DNA from: Obrimoposthia wandeli
Taxonomy: Eukaryota
Length of the DNA: 64,000 nucleotides
NCBI GenBank assembly: GCA_977020255.1
Contig: CDROCS010003796.1
Coordinates: 186,001-250,000, forward strand
Direction of reading: 5' to 3'
Part shown: piece by piece, positions 4,712-35,775 of the stretch
Position numbering within the stretch: the first letter of the stretch is position 1
Layout of the letters: every line of letters starts with the position of its first letter
Made by a program: the position numbers and the translations under genes
Notes under the pieces: model-generated
Told to the model about the DNA's origin: nothing
Seen by the model: the letters and a program-made list of their open reading frames with translations, nothing else
Database searches by the model: none

Positions 4712-5206
4712 AGTAGGTAGATGTGGCCCTTCTGGAACAAAGCCCCCGTCCTGAGGACAAGTTAAGGTCGCGATGAGGACAAAATGTAGACCCACGAGGG
4801 GTCTTTCTCCTGAAAGACACATATCAAGTAGGGTGATGTGCGTCTTTCAGGACAAAAACATTATGAGTCATACGCCCCCCTCCTAGGGGTAGGAGGACAA
4901 GTTAAGGTAATGATGAGATCCTGTCCTCATGAGGTCAAGATCATTTAAGATCATGGTGAGGTCAAAACGATGACTCGTCCTATGACTCATATTCTATTTT
5001 TAGTAACATATTTTAAAACTATATATATTTTTTATCTAAAGATTGTATTAACATGCGGTCTTCACCAAAAATACATTTCCTGTGTGTGTATATAACAAAG
5101 ACAGTCACGTACTACATTTATTCTTATACATGTATGCATGTGTGTGTGTGTAACAAAGACAGTCACATACTGCATCTACATTGCAAAAACTTGCAACTTT
5201 ATGTAA

Positions 5207-5523
5207 TTACAAACTCTTTGGAGATTTTAGTAAAAACTTTTACGTAGATATGTACTAGGATCCTTTTCAATTGCACTTACAACTTTATGTAATCCTACAA
5301 AAATATCAAGTATACCATTCCCTTTTTGTATACCTGCAATATAATCCATATTCTTTTTCAATTTTATAGCATTTGTATTAACTCCACCAAACTATCTACC
5401 TCAAAGATTTCCTATTATAAAAGGAATACCCCCCTTCCTGATTTTATTTTTACCCATAGTCTTTTTTACCTTAGTCATTTTTTTGAATTTTAATGATTTA
5501 GTAGGATTTATAGTCATTTTCAT
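5207..5523 (-). pseudogene. Homolog of the Lys-rich Polinton ORF at 35875-36234
   Basis: Reverse complement reads MKMTINPTKSLKFKK...GIQKGNGILDIF...EKDPS, collinear with the 35875 ORF; stops present. Confidence 0.8.
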
Positions 5524-5589
5524 AATAAATATTATTAAATAGTACTATTTTTTACATATAAAAATAATACAAATAAAGAAACAAAGTAC

Positions 5590-6920
5590 AAGTCGAGCTC
5601 ATCCAGGATCCGGAGATGTACCGTCTCTTCCACTCCGGGATTCGCGGAGGCATGACCTTCGTGAATGAACGCAAGATGGACACCATCAACGGTACTGAAC
5701 TTTTGTATATAAATGTGAATAACTTGTACGGGTGGGCAATGTCCTAGTTTTTACCTTGTGGTAACATTTCCTGGGTAACTGATCGGTTAGAGTTGGGGAA
5801 TATTATTTCCAATTTAAAAGCAGCAGATTTATCCTGTTGTCGCTTCACTCATTTATTGGATATAGATTTATCCATTCCCAATGAGATACATAATAAATTT
5901 GACGATCTTCCTCTTGCTCCAATTAAACAGTGTCCACCAGGGTGTAAGAATGAAACATTATTACTAACACATTACCCTAAGAATCATTATGTTATGCATT
6001 CTAAATTGCTACAAATGTACATTTGACTTGGTGCTAAGGTAGATTTTTTATACAGAGCAATACAGTTTGAACAAACTAATGTTTTTTCAAAATATATTGA
6101 GGATAATTCTCTCAAAAGAGCTGCGGCTACAACAGATTTCGAGCGAGATTATTACAAACTGAAGGTGAATTCTTTATTTGGAAATCTCATTTAGAATCTG
6201 ATAAAAATAATTAACCTTCGGATTTGTAATACTCCACAGAAGCTGGTTACCTATTGCATTAAACACCACTTTCGTAGGACAATCGAAATCGATACGGATA
6301 TAATTGCAGTTATACAGGATAAGAAAAAAATTGTTTTGGATCGTATTAGTTATATAGGCCAGACAGTATTAGATTTAAGCAAACTTCGTATGTATGAGCT
6401 ACAATATGAGCAGTTGGAGAAATATCAAGCTTAATTTAACTGTGACATTAGAATTATAGTGGGTGACACTGATAGTTTTTTCTTGAAGTGTAATAATGTA
6501 AATGTTCAAGAAACATTGTTACCTGCTATGATTAGACTATTGGTTACCTTGAAATTTCCAAATGCCCATCCGCTTTATACAACGCTTAATACAGTAATTA
6601 TTCACCTATAAGGGGTCCCACCTATAAGGGTGTCCGGTCACTGAAAATTTCACGCTTCACCTATAATAGTATCTTTCCAAGCTTTTAAATAATGCATCTA
6701 TAAGTGATTCGGTGTCGGTTTCTCTCAAAAACATGTTTTAATGAATACCCTTACAGGTGAATAATTACTGTACAGCGAGTGGTAAATTTAAAGATGAGAG
6801 CAAGGAATTTTTTAGCCATTTTTTAAGGGATTTTTCTACGTCCAAAATCATATAGCTTAGAGACTACAGAAGGTGAGTCTCCGAAGGTATTAGTCTCCGA
6901 AAGACAAGTATTAGACATTT
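5590..6920 (+). pseudogene. polB: pPolB C-terminal half, second copy
   Basis: ELIQDPEMYRLF, NVNNLYGW, YYKLKVNSLFG and VGDTDS; closely similar to 18621-19780. Confidence 0.92.
6592..6770. mobile_element. 179-bp MITE of the pogo element at 24635-27914, TA TSD
   Basis: TIRs CAGTAATTATTCACCTATAAGGG / CCCTTACAGGTGAATAATTACTG. Removing it restores polB TLNTASGKFKDES. Confidence 0.93.
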
Positions 6921-17399: not shown

Positions 17400-18250
17400 A
17401 GAATGTCTTTTTAAATATAGGTCAAAATTTTTGAAATTTGCGGAACTTTTTTTTTTAAGGTCAAGTTGAGGTCAACAAATCTAGGTTATGACCTAATGAG
17501 GTCATGACCCCCCATACTTAGGACAAAATGTCTTTGTTCTGAAAGACACACATACAGTAGGGGGATGTGTGTCTTTCAGGACAAAGACATTTTGAGCATA
17601 CCATCCCACCCTTGAGCACAGCTTAAGGTCACGATGAGGACATGACCTCATGAGGACAAGTTAAGGTCACGCTGGGGTCATGACCTCATGAGGACAAGTC
17701 AAGGTCACGCTGGGGTCATGACCTCATGAGAACAAGTCAAGGTCATGACGTCATGAGGACAATGTACTTTACGTTCACGGTGAGGTCAAAAAGATGACTC
17801 ATCAATGACTCATCGATGACTCATCCTATGACTCATCGATGACTCATATTCTATTTTAAGTAACAAACTTTAAAACTATATATATTTTTATCTAAAAGTG
17901 GTATTAACACGCGGTTTTCACAATAAGACATCTCGTGTGTGTGTGTGTGTTCAAGCTTATGTTATTTATTTAAATTAAATTATCTACTTATAAAATAAAG
18001 TATTATATAATTTGATAATTAAGTTTAAACGTTCCTATATCTATCTAACAAAGACAGTCACGTACTGCATCTATATTGCAAATACTTGCATCTTTATGTA
18101 ATCAATAGTAACAACTCACGTACTACATTTATTCTTATACATGTATATATGCGTGTGTGTCTAACAAAGACAGTCATCAATACCTACAAAGACAGTCACG
18201 TACTGCATCTATATTGCAAAAAAACTGCAACTTTATGTAAATACAAATAA
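17400..18250. repeat. Left TIR-like region of the Polinton, with 38-bp sub-repeats and a TGACTCA cluster
   Basis: Homologous to 4760-5200 and to the TIRs of 51479-56744. Confidence 0.8.
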
Positions 18251-19782
18251 TTTTAAAGACAAGTATTCTTTAACACATATATTCCTTAAAATCACAAAGG
18301 AGAATAAAAATATATACAAACACATATAAAAAGTTTATACAACATCGTCTGGGTATAAAAAGTGACCATAGGCAACTGATCGGTTTTTTTCCACCCACTT
18401 GCGTTTATCATCGCTACTGCTTAAGGCAATTTTACTTAACCTTACAGTAAAAAGTTGATGATTTAGCGAGCTTATACGTTGTTTTTGTACACGCTCGCTA
18501 ACGCCACTCATAGACGACTAAGTACCTGTTCCTGTGTGAGTTGTCGCATCACCTCGATCGCACTTGTCTGTCGGAGACTAATACCTTTGGCTCTCATCTG
18601 AGATTCACCTTCTGTAGTCTCTAGGCTATATGATTTTGGACGTAAAAAATCCCTTGCCTATAGCTAAATAATCCCTTGCTCTCATCTTTAAATTTTCCTA
18701 TCGCTGTATTAAGCGTTGTATAAAGCGGATGGGTTTTTGGAAATTTCAAGGTATCCAACAGTCCATCAGCAATCATAGCAGGTAACAGTGATTCTTGAAC
18801 ATTTACATTATTACACTTCAAGAAAAAGCTATCAGTGTAACCCGCTATAATTCTAATGTCACAGTTAAATTGAACTCGATATTTCTCCAACTGCTCATAT
18901 TGTAGCTCATACATACGAAGTTTGCTTAAATCTAATACTGCCTGGCCCATGTAAATAGGACGATCCAAAACAATATTTTCCTTATCCAGTAAAACTGCAA
19001 TAAGGTCCGTATCGATTTCGATTGTCCTACGAAAGTGGGCTTTACTGCAATAGGTAACCAGCTTCTGTGGAGTATTACAAATCCGGAGGTTAATTCTTTT
19101 CATCAGATTCTCAATGAGATTTCCAAATAAAGAATTCACCTTCAGTTTGTAATAATCCCGCTCGAAATCTGTTGTAGCCGCAGCTCTTTTGAGAGAATTA
19201 TCCTCAATATATTTTGAAAAAACATTAGTTTGTTCAAACTGTATTGCTCTGTATACAAAATCTACCTTAGCACCAAGTCTAACGTACATTTGTAGCAATA
19301 TAGAATGCACAACATAATGTTTCTTAGGGTAATGCGTTAATAACAATTTTTAAGTCTTACACCCTGGTGGACGCTGTTTAATTGGAGCAAGGAAAGATCG
19401 TCGAATTTATTATGAAGCTCATTGGGAATGGATAAATATATTTCCAATAAATGAGCGAAGCGACTACAGGATAAATCTGCTGATTTTAAGCGGGAAATAA
19501 TATTCCCCAACTCTAACTGATCAGTCACCCAGGAAAAGTAACTACAAGGTAAAAACTGGGACATAGCTCACCCGTACAAATTATTTACATCCATGTACAA
19601 AAGTTCTGTACCATTGATGGCGTCCACGCGGTGTTCATTGACAAAGGTCATACCCCGGCGAATCCCAGAGCGGAAAAGACGATACATTTCTGGATCCTGT
19701 ATTAGCTCGACTCGTACAGGGGGAGCAGAAGAAGAAGATTCCGAGCGAAGCAGGGATTTGAAAGCACTCGCGAAAGTCAGTC

Positions 19783-20019
19783 CTGGAAATAAAACATTTA
19801 TTAAAATCATTAATTTGTGAAAATCATTAATTTGTGAAAATCATTAATTTGTGAAAATCATTAATTTGTGAAAATCATTAATTTGTGAAAATCATTAATT
19901 TGTGAAAATAATTACTTTGTGAAAATTATTACTTTATGAAAATCATTACTTTATGAAAAGTTACTTAATAAAAATTACTTAATGAAAATTTACTTGGTGA
20001 AAATTAATTAAATACAAAC
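19783..20019 (-). other. 237-nt GT-AG intron in pPolB containing a 17-bp tandem repeat
   Basis: CCT G|GTTTGT...TTTCCAG|GA CTG; splicing gives FFSIPGLTFASAFKS in frame. Confidence 0.88.
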
Positions 20020-22501
20020 CAGGGATGGAGAAGAAATTGAGTGGCTCCAATCCATCGTCAGCAATGGCCTTGGTCCGGAATGCTGTAAACACATCTGCTA
20101 AAAGGTAGACGTCCATCTTCATATATACTAGCATATAGTCCCAGAGCGATGAGCAGCCGCTCTGAGTCCAGACCATCTTCGCCATTTCATATTGTGCTGG
20201 CTTGATCTTCTCATCCCACTTTGGCGGTAAGCTGGTGATTGCACGAAGAGCAGTCTCTGATACTACCATATCGTATAGGAAGATTCCCTTAACGCTCACC
20301 AGATGTTGCGGGAAGACCGAATATGTAAGAGGAGTCACATCCAGGTTTTCTACAAGTTTTTCAAGTCCGCTGTTCAAAAATTGCAAGGAATCTATAAAGC
20401 GTATACAGACTCCTCCAATATACACCATCATAGCCTGGAATTTTTTTGTTGATTGAGGTATAACAGAGACATTCCAGTCAGGAAACTTGCACAGTGCGTG
20501 TTTCAATATGTGGTGCATGTCATAACCCATAAGATTATGAAAAATGACGGGAAAAGATCGATTAATTCTCCTTGATAAGTTGCATTTCGTATGCGCTGCT
20601 CCCAGGTATTCGCCAGTCATGTGATCGTGATCTCGAACTTTGTTTGTGAGTTTCTTCTTACACAGATAACAGATTCTTGCTGCATTGAAACTCGATACAT
20701 GTTCCTGTGTGAGTTGTTGCATCACCTCGATCGCATGCTTCTTGTACCATGGGAGTACAACCTCTTTCGCCAAGTCCTCTAATTTCTGTAAAAAGGATAC
20801 CACACAAGATTCCCCAGTAAAAACCGAGTAATCATGTGTGTACCCTCTCGTGGCTGCAACGGGAGACATGAGCATACTGGCTGAGATTGGAAGCTGAATC
20901 TGATGATGGATTCCACGTGGCGGCAGCACAGCCTCAAAGTCCACGTAAACAGCAAAAGGCGGAGAAATCGTTTTTGAAAAGTCCTTAAACTTAATATGCT
21001 TCTCTGTATGCATTGAATAAAGCGTTGTATGATCTAAATTCATCCTACAGAGTGGAACGTGTTTGGCGTAACTTATTGGACTCCGGAATCCATGAAGACA
21101 CTTATGGCACCAAGTACACCGAATGCAATTAGATACACCTTTGTTCCTATAATTAAGCAGCCTATTGAGTTTAGGAATACTGACATTATGAAAATTATCA
21201 TTATTTTCTAAAAGGAGAAGATTGATTGCTTTAGCGTCCGAGTTTGTGGCTCTGTATATGACATCCACATATGGATTTTTGAAGATATCCCTATATGTTT
21301 GCTCATCAGAGAACCTATTGAATGTAAATACGTTGATTGAGAGAGATGGATTCTTTCTCTCAAATCGCGGTATGTTACATAGACGCATTGGCATCTCATT
21401 CTCATCAAAAACTAATTGACTCAAAAGGGCATCATATTGATTAACCCTATGAGGATTAGAGCGAAATAGATCGCGGAAAAGTATAGATAGGATACTGTAA
21501 AGGAAGCAAAACGTGTTAGAGTTCTGCACATTGATAACGCAATGTGAGAGTGCTAACTCGGATGGAGTAGGTATATAACTACTCCCTAGGAGATAGTTCA
21601 TTGTTGCTGTTTTAGTCACAACAAACGAAATTTCACGAAAGCGGTTCACTACCCAATTACTGCTACTTTGCGAATAATTCTCAATCTTCTTGTTGATCCC
21701 ATCTATTCCCGCATCTATAAACCCCTCATCTATGGGGAGCCCTCTATTGGAAAAATTCCAAGCACGTGTTTCTCCAATATTGGAAAATTCAACACGCACC
21801 CCGAATTGAACCTTGCAAGTCGCAAACTTGCTGACTGTGTCCCTTAAGCTAGTCAAAAGTGATACAGGAACTTGTAAATCGATGACATTGTCATAAGAAA
21901 CATCTAATGACAATGTCTCAATCGTGCCCCGAAGACTAGTCTTACGCTTAACAGCATTAACCCTGGACAACTTCGCAACAGAGCTACTTGAAGTAGGCAT
22001 AACACTTCTCTTGCGGGTAGATACTGGTAACGGCGCGGGGATCATACCAACTGGAGGAGGCATAACCTGAAGCATAGTAGAGGGTACAGCAGATGGTGGC
22101 GCAGCAATTGACGCAGCAACTGGAACAGCAACTGGGGTAGCAATTGGAGCAGTAACTGGGGACGAAGCAGTAACTGGGAACGAAGCAGTAACTGGTGCAG
22201 CAATTGGGACAGCAACTGGCGAAGCAACTGGAGCAGCAACCCGATCTTGAGAAATGGTAACAGGAGAAGCAGCATGAGCTCTATCCTGGAAGATGGCCTT
22301 CTTGCCACGTTGCTGGAAATGGCAAAGATGGACACGATGACGCGCCACAAACTCCAACCAATCAATCTCCTCCGTGGAGAGACATACTGGGCATACGTAG
22401 AATTGTTGTCCATTGAACTTTTGTCCAAAGTAGCTCTTCATTTTTCAGTCACATTCCTTGTGACTCTCCTCAAAACATAATTGTTTATTCATGTTGCAAT
22501 T

Positions 22502-22544
22502 CTACAAAGAAAAATAATGAATATAGAAATAACAAGAAACTTAC
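22502..22544 (-). other. 43-nt GT-AG intron immediately after the pPolB start codon
   Basis: ATG|GTAAGT...TTTGTAG|AAT; the spliced frame joins the 820-aa ORF with one TGA at 22445-22447. Confidence 0.75.
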
Positions 22545-22862
22545 CATTTTCAATTTCATTTATAATAGAGAGTTATTTGTTGATTGATGCTTGCTTATAT
22601 ACTATTTTCGAGCTAGTATTAAGCCAATCAGATTCATTCATTATTTAAACTAATCAGATTCATTTATTATTTAAAACAAATCAGAATAGAAAATAGTTTA
22701 CTGATTAATGTGAGTAGTTGATTTTTCATTAATATTTAAATAATCCAAACTAGCTGCAAAGCATTTCTTGTATGCACAATGCTCTCCATGTTTAATATAT
22801 GGACAATTGATATTTGATGGATTTAATTGTTTTAATGTTTTCGAGTAATTTATCACTCTAAC

Positions 22863-23132
22863 TTAAGGAAAATATTTATTGAATGTTTTTATTTTAGCTC
22901 CATTATACTCATCCAAAACAAAGAAAATTGATTTGGATACATCACAACAATTTTTTATTTCCTCAGTTATTTCTTGTATCTTGAAATAACTATTACCATC
23001 AACTAGTTTTAGTCGATGGTAATGCTTAATGAGATATATATTTATTTTTTTTGATTTTCTATTCATCATGACCCATATAGGTTGCATTTTAAAAACATAA
23101 TGTTTAGGATAGAAGATTGCATCCACATCCAT
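22863..23132 (-). CDS. Polinton orphan ORF, 89 aa
   Basis: Open ORF between PRO and polB, co-oriented with both; no motif recognised. Confidence 0.55.
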   Translation of the reverse strand: MDVDAIFYPKHYVFKMQPIWVMMNRKSKKINIYLIKHYHRLKLVDGNSYFKIQEITEEIKNCCDVSKSIFFVLDEYNGAKIKTFNKYFP

Positions 23133-23243
23133 TAAAAATAGTTCCTTTATTACAAATTCAGTATTATTATCAATAAAAGCTTCAAAATCAATAAAATAAA
23201 CAGATATTTTTATAGCAATAATTTTATTTTATATTGTTTATAT

Positions 23244-23585
23244 CTATTGTTTATGCTTTAACCAAAGCAGACAGAGTTGTCCACATGACTGTGTTAAAAC
23301 ATTTTGATAATGTTTCTTACTAAAATGTACTTTCTTTCCAGATTCAAGTACTGTAGATACTAATTTAGAGGGGTAATATATCCCAAAGGGGTCAAAAACA
23401 AAGATTTCAATTTCTTTAACATGTATTGCAATCCAATGTTCACCACGCAAATTAGATGAATGTGTACTGATTACATATCCACCTAAACGAGTCAAAGGGG
23501 GGATATGATCAAGACTGTAGACTCCATTGAAACGCGAACCGAGTAGTTTTCTTCCGCTTTTTGTTATCTCGTCCGAACTAGATTA
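23244..23585 (-). pseudogene. pro: Adenain-like cysteine protease (Polinton PRO); start codon unclear
   Basis: GEHW, FDPFG and Q...SCGQLC catalytic motifs; the frame extends upstream (FNGVYSLDHIP). Confidence 0.92.
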
Positions 23586-23650
23586 TATATTAATTAATTA
23601 ATTAAAACTGACTTACTTCATTTATATCTTCTTTATTGTTTTCATTCTGT

Positions 23651-24634
23651 TTATACTAGCACTGTTCCTCCCTTGATAATTTGAACCTCAGAATCGAATA
23701 CTCCATAGATTATAATATTAGTAGGATGTTTAAGTGCTTTTGAAAACTTGATTTCTACTTTCAAATTTCCCTGTTTAGGGATTTGAGCTTGATTAATATC
23801 TAAATCAGGAGAGAGAACAAATGTGAACAGTGTATAATTGTCCTTGAAATCAGTCATTGAAATTCCAATATTAGCATCCTTATCCAAATGACCAAGATTT
23901 CTAATTAAAGATTGCACATAAGAAAACACATAATCATTATTTTCAAAGTCATTTGTATAAGATTCTTGATAATAAATATTTCTTGCAAGTTTAATTGAAC
24001 TCACATTCATATGTCCAAATTGAGAAACCTCATTTTTAGACTCACCTCCATAGGTAGAAGTGTTTTGCAAAGCAATTAAAACAAAGTTTGGAAGTTGCAT
24101 ATCACTGCATATAAATCTGATCCTTGTAATAAGATAGTGCTCCCGTAGGGTTAGCGTGAGAAACAAGATTAGTTTTTCTAATAGGATAACATGCATTTTG
24201 CTTCTCCAACCCTATTCGATGTGCAACGAGTACAGATGGTTCCACCCTTTACTCTTCTAACCAACAGTTTTGCTTCGGTAATCTCAATTGCTGCTTTAAT
24301 AGTATCGGCGCAAACAACACTAAAACCTACTGGATTTCTCTTCATTCGAATATGTGCACTTACACCGGGTAAAAGATACTTTGGTTGCTTAAAGAAATCC
24401 AAATGGAGACTGCCACAAAGTGACAATACTTTAGACTTTGCAATCGAAGCTGTTCTTCTTTTTTCATCATCATCAAACCCAATTGCATCAAGATTAATCA
24501 ATTTCGTATCATTACCATAATTTAGAAATGTTTCAATCATTGCTTTATGGGTGTAACTAGTATTATTTCCCTCAACTTTCACATTATTGAGACTGAGAAT
24601 CACATCCTTGAAAAGAGTATGCAACATGTAATTA
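23651..24634 (-). pseudogene. MCP: Major capsid protein (PY), C-terminal part, frameshifted
   Basis: YMLHTLFKDV, LHLDFFKQPKYLLPGV, YTLFTFVLSPD and GNLKVEIKFSKAL. Confidence 0.92.
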
Positions 24635-24766
24635 CAGTAATTATTCACCTATAAGGGTGTCCAGTCACCGAAAATTTCACGCTTCACCTAACAAAGGGTG
24701 CCCGGTCACCGGATTTAAGTCCTTGATTTTTTTTAATCACAGAGAAAATTCAACTCAATGATCAAT

Positions 24767-26592
24767 TTATTCATCATTTCCCCCCTCATTTTCACTCTCA
24801 CTTTCAATTTCACTTTCTTCTTCATCAGAATCATCATTTTCATAATCGCTATCGCTATCACTTTGGTCTTCATCGTCACTTTCTCCGATTTGATAGTCTT
24901 CGAGCGCTTGGACTTTGATCAACGCATCCTCCGAACCATCAGAAGCATTGAGCATACCACATTCAACGAATGCTTTCGTGATCTGCGCTAGACCATTCTC
25001 ATTGAGAAATTCTTTCCAAGATTCGCTGAGCCAAGTTGCATACAGCAATCGTCTTTCCCTAGCGTTGATTTCGCCGTTGACCCAACCATCGTGGTTGTCA
25101 TCGAAGTGCTTGTTATATTTCTTCTTCATTCGATCTTTTATTGCTTTCCCCAATCCTCGATCTGTCACAGCACAGAGATCTGTGCAATCAGGAGGGGTAT
25201 AAATTAACAAAGTATTTGAATCGCGGATCATTTTTTTAAATTCCGGAGAACATTGAGATCCAAGATTGTCCAGACCAAGGAGCTTTTCATTGCTGCCACG
25301 AGTTTGTTTCTCGAAATTGTGAGCGTATTCCAATGAGGTTGCGGTATCAAACCAGGCTTTCGGTTGATAATAAATTTCGACATCTTTTGGCATATTCCTT
25401 TGCTCAGCATGGATACGTTTGTCATATGGGATACTCGGGTTGATAGTTCCGTCTTTAGATTTATGCGGTTTGAGTCGAAAACATATCCCAGGTTTGATAC
25501 GTTGAGGTAAATCAGCACAAAAAGTTAACTGTAGCGTTGCTTGTCTTCGACTTTGATCAACTTTTGCTTGCTTTATTTGTACTACTCTTTTTCCTTTCTT
25601 TTCATAAGTATCTTTGAGCGGTCCTCCGAATTCCAAAGGAATTTGATCGACGTGATATCTGTTGTTTGGGGAAAAACGTCCGTATTTTTCGTCTTGGCTC
25701 GGAGGAGGTTGACAAAATTGTTTCACAGTTCTGTGAAATTTTTGCACTTCTTTCATTCTTTCATGTGCAGTTTTCGGCTTTCCATTTGTTCTCATTCGTT
25801 TAGTGACTTGAAAACGTTTGCACCACCGCTGAACCCAACCTCGTGAAGCTTTGAAATTTTTTGCTTTCTCAATTTGTTCAGCATTCATCAATTCTTTGTA
25901 TTCAGAAACAAGTTTCTTCATCTTTGATTGGAGCCATTGTGATGAAACTTTCTTCGCATCAGCGCGCCTTTGACCGAAGATGTCGTAAAGTTGTGATTCT
26001 TGTTTAGGAAACAATCCACGTTTATACTTTTCAAGACGTTCACCACTGACTTTTGCTTGACGAACAGTTGGATTAGAATCTGTAGCGTCTTTGGCAATCA
26101 ACACTCGATTTTTTTTGGTTTCCCAGTTAGAAATTGTTCTAAAACTGACTGTTGGATGCTCAGCCTTGAATTTTTCTTCGAAACAAATTGGATGATCACG
26201 CCTCGTGGCTTCAAAAGAGAGTACAAGCGAAAATTTCTTTGAGTTGGAGAATCTGATTCTTGTTTTGCATATTTGTTGTTTTGTTGGTGATCTTTTCTTT
26301 TTGCTATTGTTGGTCTTCTTTTTCTTCGGTTTGGGCGAAGAACTGATTCTGACTTCATGTTCAGACACGTTGGAATTTGAACTTGCGTTTTCGAACTTGT
26401 CAAGGTTGAGTTTGAGTTGTTTCCTCTTGTCTTTTCGTTGTTTGTGTCTGAATTTATTGTGTTGAGCCAAAGCACCCAAATTTGGAAAGATAGAAGTGCA
26501 AGTTGAGCAAGATACGTTCTTTCTGCTTCCTTTTCTGCTTGTTGAGCTCGTTGAGTTGCAGCTCCTTCTCTCATAGCGTCAAAGAACGACAT
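24767..26592 (-). CDS. pogo transposase, CENP-B HTH + DD35D, acidic tail; one probable frameshift near 26490
   Basis: FKASRGWVQRWCKRF, HVDQIP, GLDN...PPDCTDLCAVTD; 570 aa uninterrupted from 26479. Confidence 0.9.
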
Positions 26593-27112
26593 TCTTGTGG
26601 TGAAAAGAAAGATTCTAAAGTAACCAGATTTACATAAATGTTCTATATAATACTAAAATTACCACCAACATTATATAATTTCGGTGGGTTATTAAATCCG
26701 GAGTTATAGAATGAAGTTTTAACTGGAGTAGCGCCCCGTTGGATTATCAAAAAATCTATAATGATATTGAATATATAATATCTTCGAATCTGTAAAAGGT
26801 TAAAAAGGGCTATAAACTTTTCATATTATATAAGTTATTAAATATCCATATAGGTATCTGAAAAATTTCGAGAAATTTTCTGTTTTTTATTTTTCGAGGT
26901 ATTAAATCATAAATACTTTAAATTAAATTAAATTTTGTAATATTATTTTTGCCTATTTACTATTTTAAATATAATTTTTGTATTAGAGTTAGTTTTTCTA
27001 GTTTAATCATAGGATATAATTTTCATTTTAGGAGCAGTTTAACTTTAAAGTGCTATTCTACTTTTAGGAGGAGTAGTGCAGTAGTTTTCGGAGATTCACA
27101 CACACTGGCCAA

Positions 27113-27742
27113 ATGACTGAAAAAATGAATATATTTAGATCCACGACGCAAACAACTCCTTCAATAACGTATGAAACGATGTTCAAAGAAATTTCTTGGC
27201 CTAGAGGAGGCACATATGTAATGCGAAACAACAAATTGTAGGACAAAAAGTATCAAAATAAAAAGAAACACTCAAAACAAATGAAATCAACAAGTACAAA
27301 CAAAAAGTATCAAAGTTTAAAGAAAAAATCAAAACAAATGAAATCAACAAATACAGACAAAAAGTATCAAAGTTCAAAGCAACAATCAAAACAAATGAAA
27401 TCAACAAATACAAACTAAAAGTATCAAAGTTCAAAGCAACAATCAAAACAAATGAAATCAACAAATACAGACAAAAAGTATCAAAGTTCAAAGCAACGAT
27501 CAAAACAAATGAAATCAACAAATACAGACAAAAAGTATCAAAGTTCAAAGCAACAATCAGAACAAATGAAATCAACAAATACAGACAAAAAGTATCAAAG
27601 TTCAAAGCAAGAACCTTCTTAGAACGCAGAACAACGTTTGGCTAAAACACTTGCAAACCTGATCAAGAATAAATGTTTTTTAGCCGCACAAGAAATCGAG
27701 AAGGAAATTATCGAGTTGAACACCACATATAAATGTATCTGA
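27113..27742 (+). pseudogene. Second (cargo) ORF of the pogo element with a 19-aa repeat
   Basis: One 210-codon frame, MTEKMNIFR...(DKKYQSSKQQSKQMKSTNT)n...AQEIEKEIIELN, with three isolated stops. Confidence 0.5.
27244..27610. repeat. 57-bp tandem repeat, ~6.5 copies
   Basis: Periodicity is directly visible. Confidence 0.95.
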
Positions 27743-27914
27743 ACATATGTAATTAATGTAAGTAAACATCTTTTCAGGATTTTAAGTTCTTGTTTGAATA
27801 TTCGACTGTACTCTTACAGGTGAGACTTTTAAATAATGCATCTATAAGTGATTCGGTGTCGGTCTCTCTCAAAAACATGTTTTAATGAATACCCTTACAA
27901 GTGAATAATTACTG

Positions 27915-28167
27915 TAGCTGATTTGATATCAAAATCATCATCCAAATCACCTCCTCCTTCCTTTGTAACTTTCAATTTAACGAGAAATAAACTATCATTC
28001 AAATCAAGATATTGAGTATTGGATCCATTTATATTGAATTCTAAATCCGGAGAAGATGTCCCGTTAACCGTATTTGTCGGAAACATTTCTTCAAAACTAG
28101 CACTATCAACCACAACCTGAGGTATAGGTTTATCAAATATACACAATTCAGTTTTAGCACAACTCAT
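27915..28167 (-). pseudogene. MCP: Major capsid protein (PY), N-terminal part
   Basis: MSCAKTELCIFDKPIPQ...LEFNING...YLDLNDS is a typical Polinton MCP N-terminus. Confidence 0.92.
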
Positions 28168-28217
28168 TACTTTAAAATTGTTCCACCTAGTTTCAAACGT
28201 TTGTTTATACCCGATGC

Positions 28218-28529
28218 TTATGATGTTTTCTTACGTTTATAACCACTTCCCTTTTGAGTTTTCTTTTTCAAAAATTCAGCTAGACTTGGTGAAATTTCAT
28301 TCACATGATCCAAGGCTGCATCCTTTAGTATGGGAAGAAATTTCTCATCACCAGACAAGTATTTTGATCCAACATTAGCAATAAAATTCCCGAGTCGCTT
28401 GAGTAGTGGGAAAGCAAAGCGACCAAAAACCTTCAGCCATCCTGATCCATACTGTTTTCCCACAAAATAAGGCAAATCACATCCTTGCATCGGTTTACTA
28501 TATGCATCGATTATACTTGAATCAATCAT
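28218..28529 (-). CDS. Small Polinton virion protein (PW-like), 103 aa
   Basis: QYGSGWLKVFGRFAFPLLK amphipathic motif and C-terminal QKGSG. Confidence 0.75.
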   Translation of the reverse strand: MIDSSIIDAYSKPMQGCDLPYFVGKQYGSGWLKVFGRFAFPLLKRLGNFIANVGSKYLSGDEKFLPILKDAALDHVNEISPSLAEFLKKKTQKGSGYKRKKTS

Positions 28530-29548
28530 AATTTACGAAAATGAACCGTTAAACTTGTTTCAGCTCCGTAAGCAAATGTAATTAATCTTCCAGAATCATT
28601 ACGTATATTAACTTCAATGTTGTTTATAGAAGAAGTACTCACTGGAATATACATTGGATTTTCAATTGGAATATGTATAACATCACCATACTTGTGTTTT
28701 TCCTGTTGAACCCAAATTGCTTTTATTAAGGGAAGTTCCCTTCCTCCTACGAATATTGGTTCAGTAATACTCGTGTAGATATAAATCTGATTATATGCAT
28801 TAGTCATTTTAGGAATAATCTTTGCTTTGAAAACCTCATGTTTATTTTCAAATTCATTTTCATCAAAACCGATAATTGAGGCTAATGATTTATCCATGAC
28901 AACTTTATCAATATTTGATTTCAATTAGAAATGAATCAATTTATCACCTAGTTTAAAGTTTTCAAATACATTTGGTAACACTGTTTTAAAATGTTTACAC
29001 ATTCTTTCACTATCGGGAAAAAGAAAATCATTGGGAACTGAATATATTTTTCTCTCGCGTTTAGTGAATCTGCTTTTTATCTTGAATGTAATTATCGGAT
29101 ACTTGAGATGATTATCCATAATTCCCGAAAACACATGCTTTCCTTTATCAGGGTTAGTTGGAAATCCATATTGTTGTGCAACAATTTCATCACTAAAAAC
29201 TATTTCAAAATTATGCCCTTTTCCTATATTTTGGATTCGATTCTCTTTATTCAAAAAGATTGTGAAATCATCGCCAGCCTTAATACGAGCCAAATCCATT
29301 TGACCCTTATCAAATAGTAAAGTCACATCAGTTACTTTATCAACTTCTTGTTGAGTAATCTATTCAATCTCAGCTTCACTTTGAATAGATAGAGGAGAGT
29401 AATTGAAAGAAAATTCCGTAAGAGCAGCTTCCCAAGCACCAGGTAAATTGATTGAGCTTTGATAATCAATACTAAAAATATTAGCAGTATTATTCGGCTG
29501 AGTTAATGGCGAACCAATGCTTGGTAATACAACATACATTGAGTTCAT
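28526..29548 (-). pseudogene. mCP: Minor capsid/penton (PX) with two in-frame stops
   Basis: MYVVLPS...NT...F...L.G.WEAAL, IYIYTSITEPIFVGG...PL and PMYIPV...IEVNIRNDSG. Confidence 0.92.
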
Positions 29549-30556
29549 TCTATTTGAGAAGCTAATATCCAACTAGGTTCAGTATATCCATGCCACTTAA
29601 CATGATATTGTTTATACTTTCCCCTACCTTTTGTCTTTAAGATTTCTTGAATTCTATATACATTTGGTTTCTCAGGCAAGACTTGTAATTCCTCATGATA
29701 AAATTTACCCATAATTACATTATTGCTCTCATCCTCAATGAAATACATTACTAGCACATGTTTATTATCAATTTTAGTTATACGAAATACTTCATCGCTC
29801 CAATTCTCTTTGAAATTCTTTATAAAATTAGTAGTACTAATTTGAGAAATACGTACATAATCACCAACTTTATACTTGGGTTTCTTTACAACTTGACTTT
29901 GGTTACGGCGTTGCCAAATTTCCATAGCATTCTCATATGTAACATCAACAGGTCTCTTTCGGTTTAATGATGAGTGTTCACTATGATTGTATGCATGTAT
30001 TATTTGAAGTAAAACAGTGACCCAGGGCTTATTTCCCTGCTTTGTGAAATACCTTTTCAATCGTCTCTCAATGTTCGATTAAAACGTTCAACTAAAGCAG
30101 CGTTATATTGGGAAAATACTGAGTAATGATTAATATTATGTTTTTCAATAGTGCACCAACATGTTTATTATAAAACTCCTTTCTATTGTCTGTTTGGAAA
30201 TTTCTTGGTTTTATTTCTTTAATCAAAAGCTTCATTGCAGCTAAAACATCGATACCAGACTTAGACTTTAATGGAATAGCTCGCGCGAATCTGCTAAAGA
30301 CATCAACACAAGTTAAAATATATCGATGTCCACCGTTAATACTCGCATACGGAATCATTTCCATCAAATATGCTTGCCATAAATCATTCGGGCCGCTCGT
30401 TGGGAACCGACATCTCATTGGTTTGTTTAAGCTGTAAGCTAATTGATTTCTCAACCACGCCTGAGTTTCCTTTTTCCCCTTCTTTGACTCTTTTGCTAAT
30501 TTTGAAACCCATGTGTAACCAACGGGTCGACTTGGGTCGAACCATATTTTCTCCAT
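29545..30556 (-). pseudogene. int: Retroviral-like integrase with C-terminal chromo-like domain; frameshifted, first catalytic Asp changed to Tyr
   Basis: WQAYL (normally WQADL), VDVFSRFA, TDNRKEF, ERFNRT, YNHSEHS and VKWHGY. Confidence 0.94.
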
Positions 30557-30653
30557 TACAACAAGACGATTTGATTTTTATATTGAATTTAGGAATAGAT
30601 GGAAGTGATCCCATATATAAATTCATATTTTTGATTCTAATTTATGTTTATAA

Positions 30654-31064
30654 TCATCGGTTTATTAGTCTACTAGCAAGTGCACCAACTATTGAGCTAA
30701 TAATTGGTACGAGAAATCCTAAAAATCCACCACTTTGCTTATAAAGCAACTTACGTTTACCGATCCGTGTTTTGGCGTGAAACAAAGCAAGTAGAGGTTT
30801 CTTATGCCGATTGATGTTAGCCTTGACCATTATTTTACCAGAAACTATTTTCTGTATCATATTAAGTAAATCATCAATTACAAAAGTAGGGAATGATTTA
30901 AGAATAGCTGGGCGGCGAATAGCAGGTGCACACATGAGAGAATTGAAATAGGCAATACTCCTAGATTTCTTAACAACAGTTCTTTTCTTATTTGATTTTT
31001 GAGCAACCATTTTTTTTATCAATTTTTTAACTTCAGGTTTAACAGTTTCCTTTTTAAAATTCAT
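30654..31064 (-). CDS. Basic virion protein with QSGG-FL motif and C-terminal amphipathic helix, 136 aa
   Basis: KQSGGFLGFLVPIISSIVG; sits between ATPase and INT as in Polintons. Confidence 0.75.
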   Translation of the reverse strand: MNFKKETVKPEVKKLIKKMVAQKSNKKRTVVKKSRSIAYFNSLMCAPAIRRPAILKSFPTFVIDDLLNMIQKIVSGKIMVKANINRHKKPLLALFHAKTRIGKRKLLYKQSGGFLGFLVPIISSIVGALASRLINR

Positions 31065-31712
31065 CTTCGAGAAACTGGTTTCTTTGTTTGTTTATAGACG
31101 ATTATTCCTGATGGATTGAATATATCAGTTCTAACTCTCAAGTCATCGGGACAATCTTGAGTAAAATCAATAAAAATGTATCCATGAGGAATAGTAGTTG
31201 CATCTTGAAATGAATCAATTAGGAACTTTCTATTATTTGGATAAACTTGTCTTGAAACAAAATGAACAACCGTATGATCACGTGGATTCTTGAAGAGAAC
31301 AAGACAATGTACATTTAAATTATGAGTTATATGGTTCCCTCACTTGATGAAATAGATTTTGTGTGATGAAAACAACAGTTACTTCACGATGTCGTGCTAT
31401 TTTAGTGAATAAATTATTGAAATCACTCTCTTTATTTGCTTCTTGATATAAATCATCAATAACAATAACATCATGTCGTTGTAATCGCTCAGACCAATTA
31501 TCATCGAATTCTTTAATGACTTTTATATTTTTGATTTTCTTAAACTCTTTACTGGTTAACCCGGCTTCTCCATCTCCTCCCTGATGCCAGTATATTTTAT
31601 TAAACTTAAAAGTAAAGTATTTATTATTTTGCAGTAATTTACATACAAAATGTGTTTTCCCACTACCACTAGAACCTACAATCTGAAAAACTGAATTATT
31701 TTTTAAGTTCAT
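31061..31712 (-). pseudogene. FtsK/A32-like packaging ATPase, one frameshift near 31335
   Basis: Walker A GSSGSGKT, Walker B VIDD, RH...ITQNLF, LFKNPRD and IFIDF. Confidence 0.93.
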
Positions 31713-31754
31713 ATTAAAATATTAGATTATCGGGATAATGTTTATAAGACAAAA

Positions 31755-32207: not shown

Positions 32208-32960
32208 TTACACATGATAACGATTAAAAATACGTATTTGATGAAGCCTAGCTTCATTAGGAGCAGCAATAGTCCGTTTAGTTTTAACAAGATTGGAAGC
32301 AGCTGTAACACCCATCGAATGAGATAAAAATGCAATAACAATGCAAGCAGCATGTAAACTACCATAATGACTACATACTAAAATCTTACCACCATTTTCG
32401 ATATTTTCTTTAATTATATTATTAGTCTGTTTATAATATATCATTATTGTTTCTTCTAACATTGAGTTTACAAAGACAGAAGTATATTTTAATTTCTTAT
32501 AAGATATCTTATCCAGTATAGATGTATTGATTACATGAGTGAAATTGGAGTTCAAAAGTGTAGTTTCATCAAACCCATCTCTATAATTACCAATATATAA
32601 TTGATTTACTAAAATCTCACTCATTTTTGTTTTGTTTAACTTTTCTACATTAAGTTGAGTAAATCTAGCACTAAACAAACTATCAAAAAGATGGGTCATG
32701 TGGTTCATTTCCATACTGGAAGCATGAGCTATTATGGGTTCCATAAAAGCCAAAGCATTTAAAAAATCTAATCGTCTCTTATCTTCTTCTTCAATAATTG
32801 GATCTATAATAACTTCTTCTATCATCACTTCATCAATAGTTTCTTCTCTTCTCATAACTGTTGTTGTTGCTGGTGATGATGTTGCTGATGGTGTTGCTGG
32901 CGATGATGTTGTTGGCGATAATGTTGCTGCTACTGCCAGTGCTGATGTGATTTTTTCCAT
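32208..32960 (-). CDS. Dual-specificity phosphatase fold, predicted pseudophosphatase, 250 aa
   Basis: MSEILVNQLYIGN, FTHVIN, GGKILV, CIVIAFL and VKTKR...PN. The HCxxGxxR signature reads CSHYGSLH. Confidence 0.85.
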   Translation of the reverse strand: MEKITSALAVAATLSPTTSSPATPSATSSPATTTVMRREETIDEVMIEEVIIDPIIEEEDKRRLDFLNALAFMEPIIAHASSMEMNHMTHLFDSLFSARFTQLNVEKLNKTKMSEILVNQLYIGNYRDGFDETTLLNSNFTHVINTSILDKISYKKLKYTSVFVNSMLEETIMIYYKQTNNIIKENIENGGKILVCSHYGSLHAACIVIAFLSHSMGVTAASNLVKTKRTIAAPNEARLHQIRIFNRYHV

Positions 32961-33293
32961 TTTATTAATTCAGAGTCAATTTACTCTTATATACTAAACG
33001 AGGTTTGATTTCATTGAAGCATCAGTTTCATCATAGCCGCGTGATTTGATTGGAGTATTATTCAACCTTTCCAATGTACTTCCAATGTACTTGTAAATGT
33101 AGTTGATGACGTAACCTAAAGAGTTAAATAAACTACAAATAAATATTACTCATGATTATTTTTCCTAATTAAAACATTTAGAATAACTGAGCCATGGTCT
33201 TTAAATGCATCCTGAAACTCTTTACATTCAATAATTTCATCCATTTTATGATAAAGCAAATCAAATATTGTTTATAACCCAGAAACATCTATT

Positions 33294-33968
33294 TTAGACC
33301 ACATTACAACTATTTGCAGCTATTTGCAAGTAATGACATGTGATGTCTTTGTCTCTAAGATAAATATATTTTAGTAACATTACGACTATTTGGTTCAGGA
33401 AATAAATAACACAAGTGTGAAGATCTATATTAAATAAAATACATTCAATCAGATACTCATAGTTTAAAGATTTAACATTAAGTATCATAATCTTCCCGCT
33501 AGCAAACATGTTCACGCATAGTGGATTGTATTTGACATATCCCAGGAAGATTTCTGGCTCGTAAACAGCTTCCGATCCCATACTTTTGCTCATCTTGTTC
33601 AGGTTTATTGATGTTTCTAGATTGCTGCTGAGACTGATTGATTGGATTCTTTCCATTTTTATATCAAAAGGAAGACTGCTTTCATCCAGCACCGTTTTAC
33701 AACCCATTATTCTGCATGTACCTAATTTATAATTATATATAAATGTAAAAATAAATTACCAGATTTGAAAATGATAATAGTGTAACCTTCACACTTGAGT
33801 CGATACTGATGAGGCTTCGAAGTCCGAAATGGTAAATGTTGAATGTTACTTACAACCATGCCATTGTAATTAATATTCACTAATTTGATATTGTGAAGTA
33901 GTATTTCTGATTATTATAAACTGATTTCTTCTATTTATACTATTTGAACATCTATTTTTAGATTGCAT
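33294..33968 (-). CDS. TBP (TATA-binding protein)-like gene with a 38-nt intron; 5' end uncertain or frameshifted
   Basis: Two TBP-like repeats: TIIIFKSG|TCRIMGCK and SNLETSINL...YEPEIF...VNMFASGKIMI. Confidence 0.8.
33722..33759 (-). other. 38-nt GT-AG intron in the TBP-like gene
   Basis: TCT G|GTAATT...AATTAG|GT ACA; 38 is not a multiple of 3, and splicing restores IFKSGTCRIMG. Confidence 0.85.
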
Positions 33969-33976
33969 GTCTTTGT

Positions 33977-34961
33977 TTAATTGCCTATGCTATGAAATTT
34001 AATATTTCTTACTCGTCTAATGATAATTGTCTTGCAATATGGACATGAAATAAAACGTTCTGAACATTTAATACACGTGTTTAAGTGTCCACATGGTAAA
34101 AATGCCACGGAAATCGCATCGCTCATGCAAACAACACATTTGGGATTTGGCAAGAGGTACTTGAGATAATTTATACGATGTTTAGGTCAGATTTTATTTC
34201 TAAAAATCTTAAATCCGTTATAAACTCATATATAGAATCATATTTGTTACCGAATGTTTTAAATATATTAACTAAAACGGCTTTGATTCTATCATGACTA
34301 TAATCACGTTTCAGCAAAACTATTTAACGAGTTTCCATCTGAGCATCAATTTCATCATTACTAATATGATATTCTACAATACATCAGTTCTTGATTCCCA
34401 TACTAGATGCTTTACAATCTCGAGTATGTAAGATTCTTTCAGGCATAGTATCAATAAACTCAAGTCGGGGTACTGCTTTCTGACAGAAACAACATCGATA
34501 AGAATCATTCCAAATATATACATGTGGAAAAATCGATAATGTAGGTATTTCAATATCATTAGAATAATTATTGCATACAATAACTACTTTATCCATTGGA
34601 GTTGAATCAAAATCAATTTGCTTGGTGCTGGAATCAATTATTGGTACGTTTGAAACATTCATTTCAAAACAAACGGGCATCTTGGGAAAAATAGCTGATG
34701 CCGCTTCATTGGTTTCAGATAGTACTCCCATTCCGATATTGCTCCCAGACAGTAAATACACTTTACATTATCTTTCTAATCATCGTGCTTGTAAAATCCT
34801 GCTTTTGCTAAAGCTGTCTTATCCGCTAAACCAGTAAACTTTGCTTGTAATGTATCTAATCTATGTCGCTCATATATCATATCTTCCTTTCTTCTTGAAA
34901 TCTTGTCTAAAACGTCGTCATCTAATGATGAGTTCTCCATTTTCTGAAACATAATATGCAA
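33977..34961 (-). pseudogene. iap: Inhibitor of apoptosis: BIR-BIR-UBA-RING
   Basis: BIR: LAKAGFY...DNVKCIYC...WE...H...PRCPFV. Second BIR-like: CCFC...H...C. UBA-like: RIKAVL...GNKYDSIYEFITDL. RING: CVVC...LPCGH..C..C...CPYC. Four stops and two frameshifts. Confidence 0.9.
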
Positions 34962-35409
34962 TAAATTTAGTAGTCATAACAACATTGAATAATGAAATTT
35001 TCTAGCTTATATAGTAAGTGAAAACTATTTTTAGACTACATTCTTGGATTTTACAAGAATAGTCATGTGATGTCTTTGTCTTAAGAATAAAGCAGTATAA
35101 ACAATATTTTGATAATGATTTTATTGAAAATGAATAATCAAAATAATGAAAATAATCAAAGTAGAGCTAGTACATATATAGGTTCTGGTAGTCATTTATA
35201 TTCTAATATGAATTATAATAGAAATAATCAGAGAGAAAATATTAATCCATCAAGTTAAACAATAACAAGTCCTACGCGTATAACCGAAGAACATAAGCCC
35301 TTTAAGGATATGACTAATACTAAACGATTTTCATAAACAAGAATGTTAACCAATTAGAATTGAGCTTTAGAGGATAAACAATTGAATATTTCAATTTATA
35401 ATTGTCAAT

Positions 35410-35775
35410 ATGAAATTTGAAAAGCTATATCAACATATGCATACATATTATGGATATGAGATACACTTTTTGAAGAAAACTCATAACTATATATTTATTT
35501 TTCCCGTCAACATCGAGCCGCTTAAATTTGATTTTGAAATATCAAATTTGACTTCTGTGGATAAAGAAAGAATCAGTATTCTCTTGACTCAATTCGGAAT
35601 CAACTATGCGCTTCAGGAAAACAAATTCGTAATCAAAGGATCAACTGTCACTTTCAAGCATGAGAATGGAACAATATACGAAGGACCTCCTCATAAATTA
35701 GAATGGGTTCTCTCAATCAGAATTCAGGATGCAAGTTCGGGCCCAGTGGATTGGAAACTCCGATATGGAAAATAA
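35410..35775 (+). CDS. Polinton orphan ORF, 121 aa
   Basis: Intact ORF in AT-rich context; no motif recognised. Confidence 0.65.
   Translation: MKFEKLYQHMHTYYGYEIHFLKKTHNYIFIFPVNIEPLKFDFEISNLTSVDKERISILLTQFGINYALQENKFVIKGSTVTFKHENGTIYEGPPHKLEWVLSIRIQDASSGPVDWKLRYGK

Follow-up and report, generated by a model that had tools for sequence, protein, structure and literature searches.

The Polinton element in the window (the whole 64,000-nt stretch of Obrimoposthia wandeli DNA that we analysed) carries a gene for a TBP-like protein, and we confirm that this gene is real and conserved. As modelled from a relative, its product is a two-repeat saddle fold of the TBP superfamily. We consider it likely that this compact TBP-fold protein binds the word YATAAACR in front of the virion-module genes and starts their transcription by Pol II, a reading drawn from promoter words and a predicted structure. 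The protein is likely to be the element's own switch because the lineage with the TBP-like gene shares TATAAAC in front of its particle-building genes.

The Polinton element and its genes

The surroundings of the TBP-like gene are a Polinton, as the initial annotation had proposed: Pfam matches to pPolB, adenain, integrase and an A32-type ATPase lie around it. The left terminal inverted repeat (17556..17789, plus strand) starts with AGTAGG and matches sister termini at 70%; the left end is the only one found in the window, and no right end is found there. In four of six sister elements we find AGTAGG ends together with 6-bp target duplications, and in the other two the ends are not delimited. 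Inward from the left end, all on the minus strand, come the protein-primed DNA polymerase B gene (18621..22601; DNA_pol_B_2, E=7e-9, in pieces), a conserved gene after the protease with no family assigned (22863..23255), an adenain-like protease gene (23244..23655; Peptidase_C5 at E=0.005, below the cut-off), a putative major capsid gene (23651..28241; 409 aa in sister copies), a small conserved gene of 120 aa that we take to be PZ-like (28218..28628), a putative minor capsid gene (28526..29616), the rve integrase (29545..30652; Pfam rve, frameshifted), a pX-like core protein gene with a weak Adeno_PX match (30654..31096), the packaging ATPase (31061..31746; Pox_A32 above cut-off, frameshifted) and a dual-specificity phosphatase gene (32208..32960; Pfam DSPc, E=1.9e-11). 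Both capsid labels are inferred, the minor one from size and gene order, and the conserved 409-aa and 340-aa genes at the expected places have zero Pfam matches. On the other side of the TBP-like gene lies the IAP gene (33977..34973, minus strand; BIR and RING), which is spread over three frames in the window copy. This neighbour, too, had been named correctly at the outset, since Pfam finds the RING in the window and both BIR and RING in an unbroken sister copy. The window copy as a whole is decayed: pPolB, integrase, ATPase and IAP are all broken, and the capsid gene carries a transposon, a Pogo/Tc5-type DDE element with an open 603-codon frame that splits it at about 24635-27914.

Further out, a conserved neighbour gene on the plus strand (35410..35775) is common to 15 of the 40 element clusters, which makes it the commonest non-core neighbour; we regard it as a Polinton SSB. 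The model of a relative has the T7 gp2.5 / Enc34 fold of single-stranded DNA-binding proteins (Z 8.2-8.4), with NCLDV look-alikes. As a candidate partner transcription factor this gene was set aside, given its SSB-like fold and no sequence match in Pfam or PDB. Other conserved small genes also accompany the elements, and the neighbour modelled gives no sign of a partner viral activator.

Other arrangements of these elements are also visible. A subfamily of about 15-16 kb (G000:C2574, C2062, C1312, C1323, C1346 and C1109; L031-L048) lacks pPolB: in place of the polymerase end, the opposite end is present a second time in inverted orientation, so that IAP, the TBP-like gene and most of the phosphatase are duplicated within terminal repeats of 4-5 kb. 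The junction corresponds to window position 32425 joined to 23196, with an identical breakpoint in 6/6 and 6-bp target duplications in 4/6; genome-wide, exact junctions number 49 for the pPolB-less and 1,125 for the normal arrangement. PolB-lacking Polintons are reported in the available text of 10.1101/2025.02.07.637071. Within the window itself, an inverted, diverged copy of related-element parts (pPolB tail and right-end gene) occupies 5190-6900, and a second terminal-repeat end (17527-17557) stands head to head with the left end of the element. In a relative, L088:5616-7687 holds a tandem pair of minor-capsid-like genes as well as a gene for a ubiquitin-conjugating enzyme.

Structure of the TBP-like gene and its copies

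In the window, two minus-strand open frames encode the protein: 33910-33725 contains NINY and IIIFKSG, and 33755-33294 contains TCRIMGCK, YEPEIF and NMFASGKIMIL. A 38-nt GT-AG stretch (33759-33722) joins both frames within a Gly codon, and the end of repeat 1 (IIIFKSG followed by TCRIMGCK) spans this junction. We read the gene as an exon 1 (33760..33904, minus strand; 145 nt in sister copies) with strand S1 (NINY), a shortened helix and stirrup and strand S4 (IIIF), a phase 1 intron inside the Gly codon of FKSG (33722..33759, minus strand) and an exon 2 (33294..33721, minus strand) with the end of repeat 1 and all of repeat 2. Judged from the sequence, the transcript would be spliced at this intron, and the exon junction is fixed because the relative P0001 reads FKSGKCRIMGCK there. 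Two sequencing runs of unspecified type show no join across the intron among the joints listed, and this weighs neither for nor against splicing. A canonical TATA box, TATAAATA (33932..33939, minus strand), lies 35 nt upstream of the start position. Both of the TBP-like half repeats with YEPEIF that were originally noted are thus present, on the minus strand, but the ATG at 33968 that was taken as the gene end is not its start: this ATG precedes the TATA box at 33939, belongs to a different frame that reaches a stop after about 32 codons, and is ruled out by the sister copies described below.

Exon 2 of the window matches the Pfam TBP family (PF00352) with E=2.9e-7 and 30.7 bits against a curated cut-off of 22.9 (56-65 bits in one sister copy and two relatives), and of its 23 matches among PDB sequences, 22 are to TBP chains or fusions of TBP. 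At the usual start position, 33904, the ATG is missing from the window copy, which also lacks two codons after YEPEIF and has an altered C-terminal tail. Of the changes that separate its exon 2 from that of a sister copy, 8 are silent and 4 replace a residue (dN 0.02, dS 0.15, dN/dS about 0.1), which points to purifying selection on exon 2 despite the decay of this copy.

The host assembly of 1.35 Gb contains at least 1,589 sister copies, counted with an exact 22-mer from exon 2, and a protein search of the genome returns at least 150 places at 94-100% identity. Most sister copies examined are open and encode about 169 residues, with start, TATA box and stop. For the 29 best-scoring copies, which lean toward intact ones because they were selected by exon 2 likeness, the ATG equivalent to 33904 is present in 27, the GT-AG ends in 28, an intron of 38 nt in 28 and TATAAATA 35 nt upstream of the start in 25. 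Six copies with a 39-nt intron stretch read through in frame. A second Polinton family in the same genome (G000:C1400, C3530, C2214 and C3263; L131-L142), with a capsid 56-58% identical, has its own TBP-like gene, the protein of which is 42-50% identical and the 38-nt intron of which lies at the identical codon and phase. Constant length, GT-AG ends and this identical position rule out a mere frameshift in place of the intron. In the metagenome relatives with the motif, it is contiguous across the intron site in 55/55; all of them are intronless, and the intron was therefore gained in the host-linked sub-lineage. Five places found by capsid search and one further place in this genome all have a TBP-like match, and among them no Polinton family without the gene is found.

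The host TBP is canonical, with introns elsewhere than in the TBP-like gene. Its gene, which has a 47-nt intron, is present in two inverted copies (L109 and L110, on G000:C238), and the genome also holds two intronless, divergent TBP paralogues of 33-34% identity (L111 and L112), which we presume to be TRF2-like.

A conserved protein family with the TBP fold

A search with exon 2 yields one relative, P0001, which is 52% identical to the sister exon 2, and a search with P0001 yields 80 proteins among 83 candidates, mostly of 144-170 residues (148-149 aa in the intronless relatives). In a profile search the family alignment matches TBP chains with E down to 1.6e-20. The fold was predicted for P0001, standing in for the window protein; its AlphaFold model, built with 80 sequences, has a pLDDT of 96.7. 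The top 44 Foldseek matches of this model at E<=0.001 are all TBP (TM 0.76), and comparison with TBP (VIA) gives Z 13.6 and rmsd 2.8 over 150 of 156 residues, the next non-TBP structure scoring Z 6.3. The closest viral structural matches are the TBPs of large viruses (E 5e-10). The TBP identity first suggested from the letters therefore stands, with profile and structure searches both matching TBP and the modelled relative doing so over its whole length.

Of 57 metagenome loci, 23 have a Polinton core-gene match, as do 9 of the 11 loci of 4 kb or more; the 34 loci that have none are mostly short. Two (L074 and L088) span from the TBP-like gene to pPolB. The position of the gene varies in these relatives, often beside protease or ATPase rather than IAP. 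In IMG/VR, a single-protein scan finds three NCLDV-type TBPs only and an alignment scan finds zero members of the family, in a database where close Polinton controls are likewise absent and three distant ATPases are found.

How does the family relate to other TBPs? Our tree uses repeat 2 only (88 columns) and draws on 27 of the 80 family proteins and 5 locus proteins, with 31 rows kept. It places these 31 Polinton rows on one side of a branch and 17 cellular and NCLDV rows opposite (89/91, not starred); the Polinton group includes both genome families and none of the three NCLDV proteins sampled, and the gene is therefore an old element gene rather than a fresh capture. The initial annotation had looked to a phylogeny that would include host and viral TBPs. 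The separation from cellular and NCLDV TBPs holds, but the host TBP is omitted because introns split its repeat 2.

A less reduced member, of 171 aa with longer H1 and H2 regions, is found at L099:1-540 and in L108, where the adjoining ATPase is of a different class (37% identity) and the ATAAAC word is present. L099 is a possible intermediate, and the TBP-like gene possibly spans two Polinton groups.

Changes on the DNA-binding face

We compare the 80 family proteins with 16 cellular TBP references in yeast numbering, which we assume to apply to the family and have anchored by structure alignment and by the positions of the mutant TBPm3. Over the initial 35-40 residues of repeat 1 the register given by profile-profile and multiple alignment is unreliable; N69 is placed there via the structural range and F99 via internal symmetry. 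The DNA-intercalating Phe residues, singled out early on as a point to inspect, give a divided answer: three of the kinking Phe are kept (F116 in 77/80, F190 in 80/80, F207 in 80/80), but the counterpart of F99 is gone, its place being taken by K, P or S when aligned on a conserved Pro. N69 and P191 are also kept, and so is the acidic stirrup, in the numbering that we take to be E186/E188 (E186 in 76/80, the other four having D; E188 in 79/80). In the available text of PMC12529657 the stirrup residues are named E184 and E188. Helix H2 is deleted, with about 10 columns gapped in 78/80 and L099 as a longer outlier, helix H1 is partly lost and repeat 1 is shortened. With F99 gone and a shorter repeat 1, the protein may bind DNA weakly or depend on a partner to do so.

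On the DNA face the family carries V122R (78/80), T124M (80/80), N159S (75/80), I194R (79/80), V203C (80/80) and L205N (80/80), and V161T is fixed as well. These DNA-facing residues are among the most invariant columns of the alignment, and such invariant new residues suggest a conserved, different DNA contact. Three of the positions are those of TBPm3 (I194F, V203T, L205V), the yeast altered-specificity mutant whose changes permit TGTA binding according to the available text of PMC1636458.

Two promoter words divide the element's genes

In the window, YATAAACR precedes every gene of the virion module, by which we mean ATPase, pX-like gene, integrase, both capsid genes, PZ-like gene, protease and the gene after the protease. 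As TATAAACA it stands before the ATPase (31739-31746, 34 nt before the ATG), the pX-like gene (31089-31096), the integrase (30645-30652), the putative minor capsid gene (29609-29616, inside the integrase tail), the PZ-like gene (28621-28628) and the protease (23648-23655); two motifs each precede the putative major capsid gene (28234-28241 and 28202-28209) and the gene after the protease (23248-23255 and 23235-23242). A different word, TATATAAG, precedes IAP (35006-35013), phosphatase (32986-32993) and pPolB (22594-22601).

For the wider count, 59 loci were merged into 40 clusters, and starts less than 130 nt from a contig end, or with an alignment beginning past query residue 25, were dropped. 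ATAAAC lies 10-130 nt upstream of 56 of 61 virion-module starts from 20 clusters, where it is the top hexamer, against a background of 11% and an antisense control of 1/61, although motif sites in homologous genes share ancestry and these statistics overstate independence. The consensus of 55 sites is YATAAACR, with the C invariant. The ATPase genes have ATAAAC at 31-47 nt in 14/14, most of them 31-36 nt from the ATG; the TATA boxes of IAP and phosphatase are at 33-36 nt. By contrast with the virion module, ATAAAC is found for 0/3 pPolB genes and for 4/33 TBP-like genes, 13/33 of which have a canonical TATA. Where the motif falls within upstream coding tails, Ile-Asn is spelled ATA AAC in 27/39 cases versus 10/77 elsewhere; silent sites between elements are near saturation, and the DNA word itself is therefore conserved.

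The near-identical TATATAAG boxes had been suggested as the site on which the protein could act. Three of the six copies in the window do lie on the coding strand ahead of IAP, phosphatase and pPolB, but six copies against 4.2 expected is no enrichment (23 of 100 shuffles reach six), and TATATAAG is set aside as a special element word and read as a canonical TATA box ahead of accessory and replication genes. The element-specific word is probably YATAAACR before the virion-module genes, and TATATAAG is probably the wrong target.

Two Polinton fragments with no TBP-like match have the motif before 0/10 virion-side starts, a control made of ATPase-selected, incomplete contigs of one mis-binned record with another ATPase class; one of the two has TATAAAC before a pPolB-like frame. 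At L099, where an ATPase of a similarly distant class sits beside a TBP-like gene, the motif is present. In a third fragment, which possibly carries a TBP-like gene, the ATPase is of the same class and is preceded by TATAAAAA.

Some smaller features accompany these words. Between the TBP-like and phosphatase genes lies a short frame, MDEIIECK... (33146-33276, minus strand; 32 codons from ATG), with TATAAACA 32 nt upstream, which is kept in the sister copy L008. A small conserved frame, MG..LP.L/I (about 30390-30652, minus strand), overlaps the integrase start in another frame and recurs with the motif upstream in 4 clusters (also L101:3410-3661 and L103), and the motif counted for the integrase may serve this frame instead. 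A repeated upstream block with ACAAAGACAT and CTAAAAATAG occurs before the phosphatase, TBP-like and IAP genes (33290-33365, 33940-33985 and 35025-35090; also 17575-17590 and 18045-18200), its number varying between copies, and ACAAAGAC is also found in the terminal repeat. We take the words of this block to resemble Sox/TCF and MEF2 sites; the block is possibly a host-factor enhancer of early genes.

Discussion

The fold, the residues and the genomic context argue for an element-specific TATA-binding factor, as had been suggested at the outset. In the mechanism that we propose, host TBP would read the canonical TATA boxes of pPolB, IAP, phosphatase and the TBP-like gene itself, which would form an early set. 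Splicing of the TBP-like transcript at the 38-nt intron would give a protein of about 169 residues, predicted to fold as a two-lobed saddle with three kinking Phe and a retuned, more polar DNA face. This protein would bind YATAAACR about 30-40 nt before the ATPase, core, integrase, capsid and protease genes and could recruit TFIIB through its kept acidic stirrup, and the loss of H2 may let it bypass the host factors that grip this helix, which we presume to be TFIIA, Mot1, TAF1 and Brf1. Whether the lineage as a whole runs an early/late cascade, with a minimal TBP that has shed H2 and changed its specificity positions, a private TATAAAC box and host TFIIB, is a broader proposition to which we give an even chance.

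The same observations can be read in other ways. The protein could be a supplement with no specificity of its own, such that host TBP or the protein reads both words and the protein only boosts transcription of the element, perhaps when a cell has little host TBP or repressors keep it bound. We think this unlikely, though YATAAACR does sit at the same distance from the ATG as canonical boxes and the host possesses its own canonical TBP; moreover, the PDB entry 1qn3 has wild-type TBP crystallised on a C(-25) TATA variant, and host TBP may therefore read TATAAAC unaided. Such a supplement would leave superfluous both the fixed changes at the specificity positions and the clean split of the two promoter words by gene class. 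Slightly less probable again is a decoy or inhibitor that titrates host TFIIB or TBP partners, or blocks host TATA boxes, and thereby damps transcription or defence. A gene flanked by two host-modulating genes (IAP and phosphatase) and headed by an early-type TATA box would suit this role, as would a stirrup kept while F99 and H2 are lost, but few columns of the alignment are as invariant as those that face the DNA, the gene moves away from IAP in relatives, and the conserved promoter word is left unexplained. The decoy reading thus fits less well than an element-specific factor.

Two further possibilities we hold to be improbable, the latter more so. The protein might bend DNA for replication, packaging or integration, YATAAACR being read otherwise or serving as a polyadenylation-type signal. 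TATAAA and CATAAA do resemble variant poly(A) signals, and the commonest non-core neighbour (15/40 clusters) folds like a single-stranded DNA-binding replication protein; the motif, however, is often embedded in the coding sequence of the preceding gene and as a poly(A) signal would truncate it, its C is invariant, its distance to the next ATG is tight and the TFIIB stirrup is retained. That the gene is a dead or recently captured piece of host TBP could apply to the window copy only, with its missing start codon, two-codon gap and altered tail. For the family as a whole this is refuted by 80 full-length relatives, by the residues, by a tree that sets both genome families among the Polinton proteins and separates them from cellular TBPs (89/91, not starred) and by selection (dN/dS about 0.1); the host TBP, moreover, is canonical and has its introns at other places.

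An element-specific factor bears on the way in which Polinton capsid genes are turned on and on whether a timed virus-like cycle exists, and given a candidate factor and a matching word the question comes down to a single small protein and an 8-bp site. For TBP itself the family amounts to a natural experiment: the conserved saddle can lose helix H2 and one kinking Phe, and it is altered at exactly the positions that yeast genetics ties to TATA specificity. With more than 1,500 copies in the genome, any expression could touch host genes that carry TATAAAC. If our reading is true, no smaller viral pre-initiation factor is known, factor and word would form an orthogonal TBP-promoter pair of natural origin, and integrated elements would be seen to follow a timed virus-like programme; if the protein is orthogonal to host TBP, it would be a candidate tool for synthetic promoters.

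Comparison with known systems

The element shares with Polintons, Mavericks and adintoviruses the features common to them: pPolB, rve integrase, packaging ATPase, adenain, TIRs, 6-bp target duplications and IAP cargo. Earlier notice of a possible counterpart of the gene is slight: a figure legend for one MELD virus in Starrett et al. 2021 (PMC8502044) has the label 'TBP', undiscussed, and the available text gives that gene no family, structure, function or promoter. TBP and TATA terms are absent from one supplement file of the same paper and from the texts of PMC11071308, 10.64898/2026.06.19.733378, 10.1101/2024.03.25.586562, 10.1101/2023.10.06.561300 and 10.1101/2025.02.07.637071, the figures and supplements of which could show the gene. 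The article texts searched hold no account of the TBP-like family or of a promoter word for Polinton structural genes.

Cellular and archaeal TBP (PF00352; PDB 5fur_A, 7o4i_O and 1mp9_B) is alike in its saddle fold over the whole length and in N69, F116, F190, P191, F207 and the YEPE(L/I)F stirrup. The Polinton protein differs in its size of about 150-170 residues, its 22-26% identity and the absence of an N-terminal extension; it departs from canonical TBP in the set of four Phe and in helix H2 but has the acidic stirrup. TBPm3 has the same three positions changed that are changed and fixed in the family (I194, V203 and L205), but the residues differ (R, C and N in the family), and its site is altered at position 2, whereas YATAAACR varies at positions 1 and 7. 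Nucleocytoviricota and mirusviruses likewise encode proteins of the TBP fold. Large DNA viruses, however, mostly bring their own RNA polymerase, and the Polinton element has no polymerase subunit among its genes.

The nearest parallel in function may be the herpesvirus mimics KSHV ORF24, EBV BcRF1 and HCMV UL87, in which a polar TBP-like domain of viral origin is likewise coupled to a non-canonical TATA word ahead of the late structural genes. According to PMC12529657, the TBP-like face with which ORF24 acts on TATTWAA late promoters is polar; ORF24 works with host Pol II, needs all four Phe, lacks the TFIIB-binding acidic residues and binds Pol II directly. These mimics are large multidomain proteins in a six-member complex, with an N-terminal domain that binds Pol II and a C-terminal one that binds DNA, whereas the Polinton protein consists of the core alone with its acidic stirrup intact, its word is YATAAACR rather than TATT, and the modelled structure matches BcRF1 weakly (E 3e-3, TM 0.41). 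Our best reading, by analogy, is that the Polinton protein works like the herpesvirus TBP mimics while not being a member of them, and would serve as a late-gene promoter factor.
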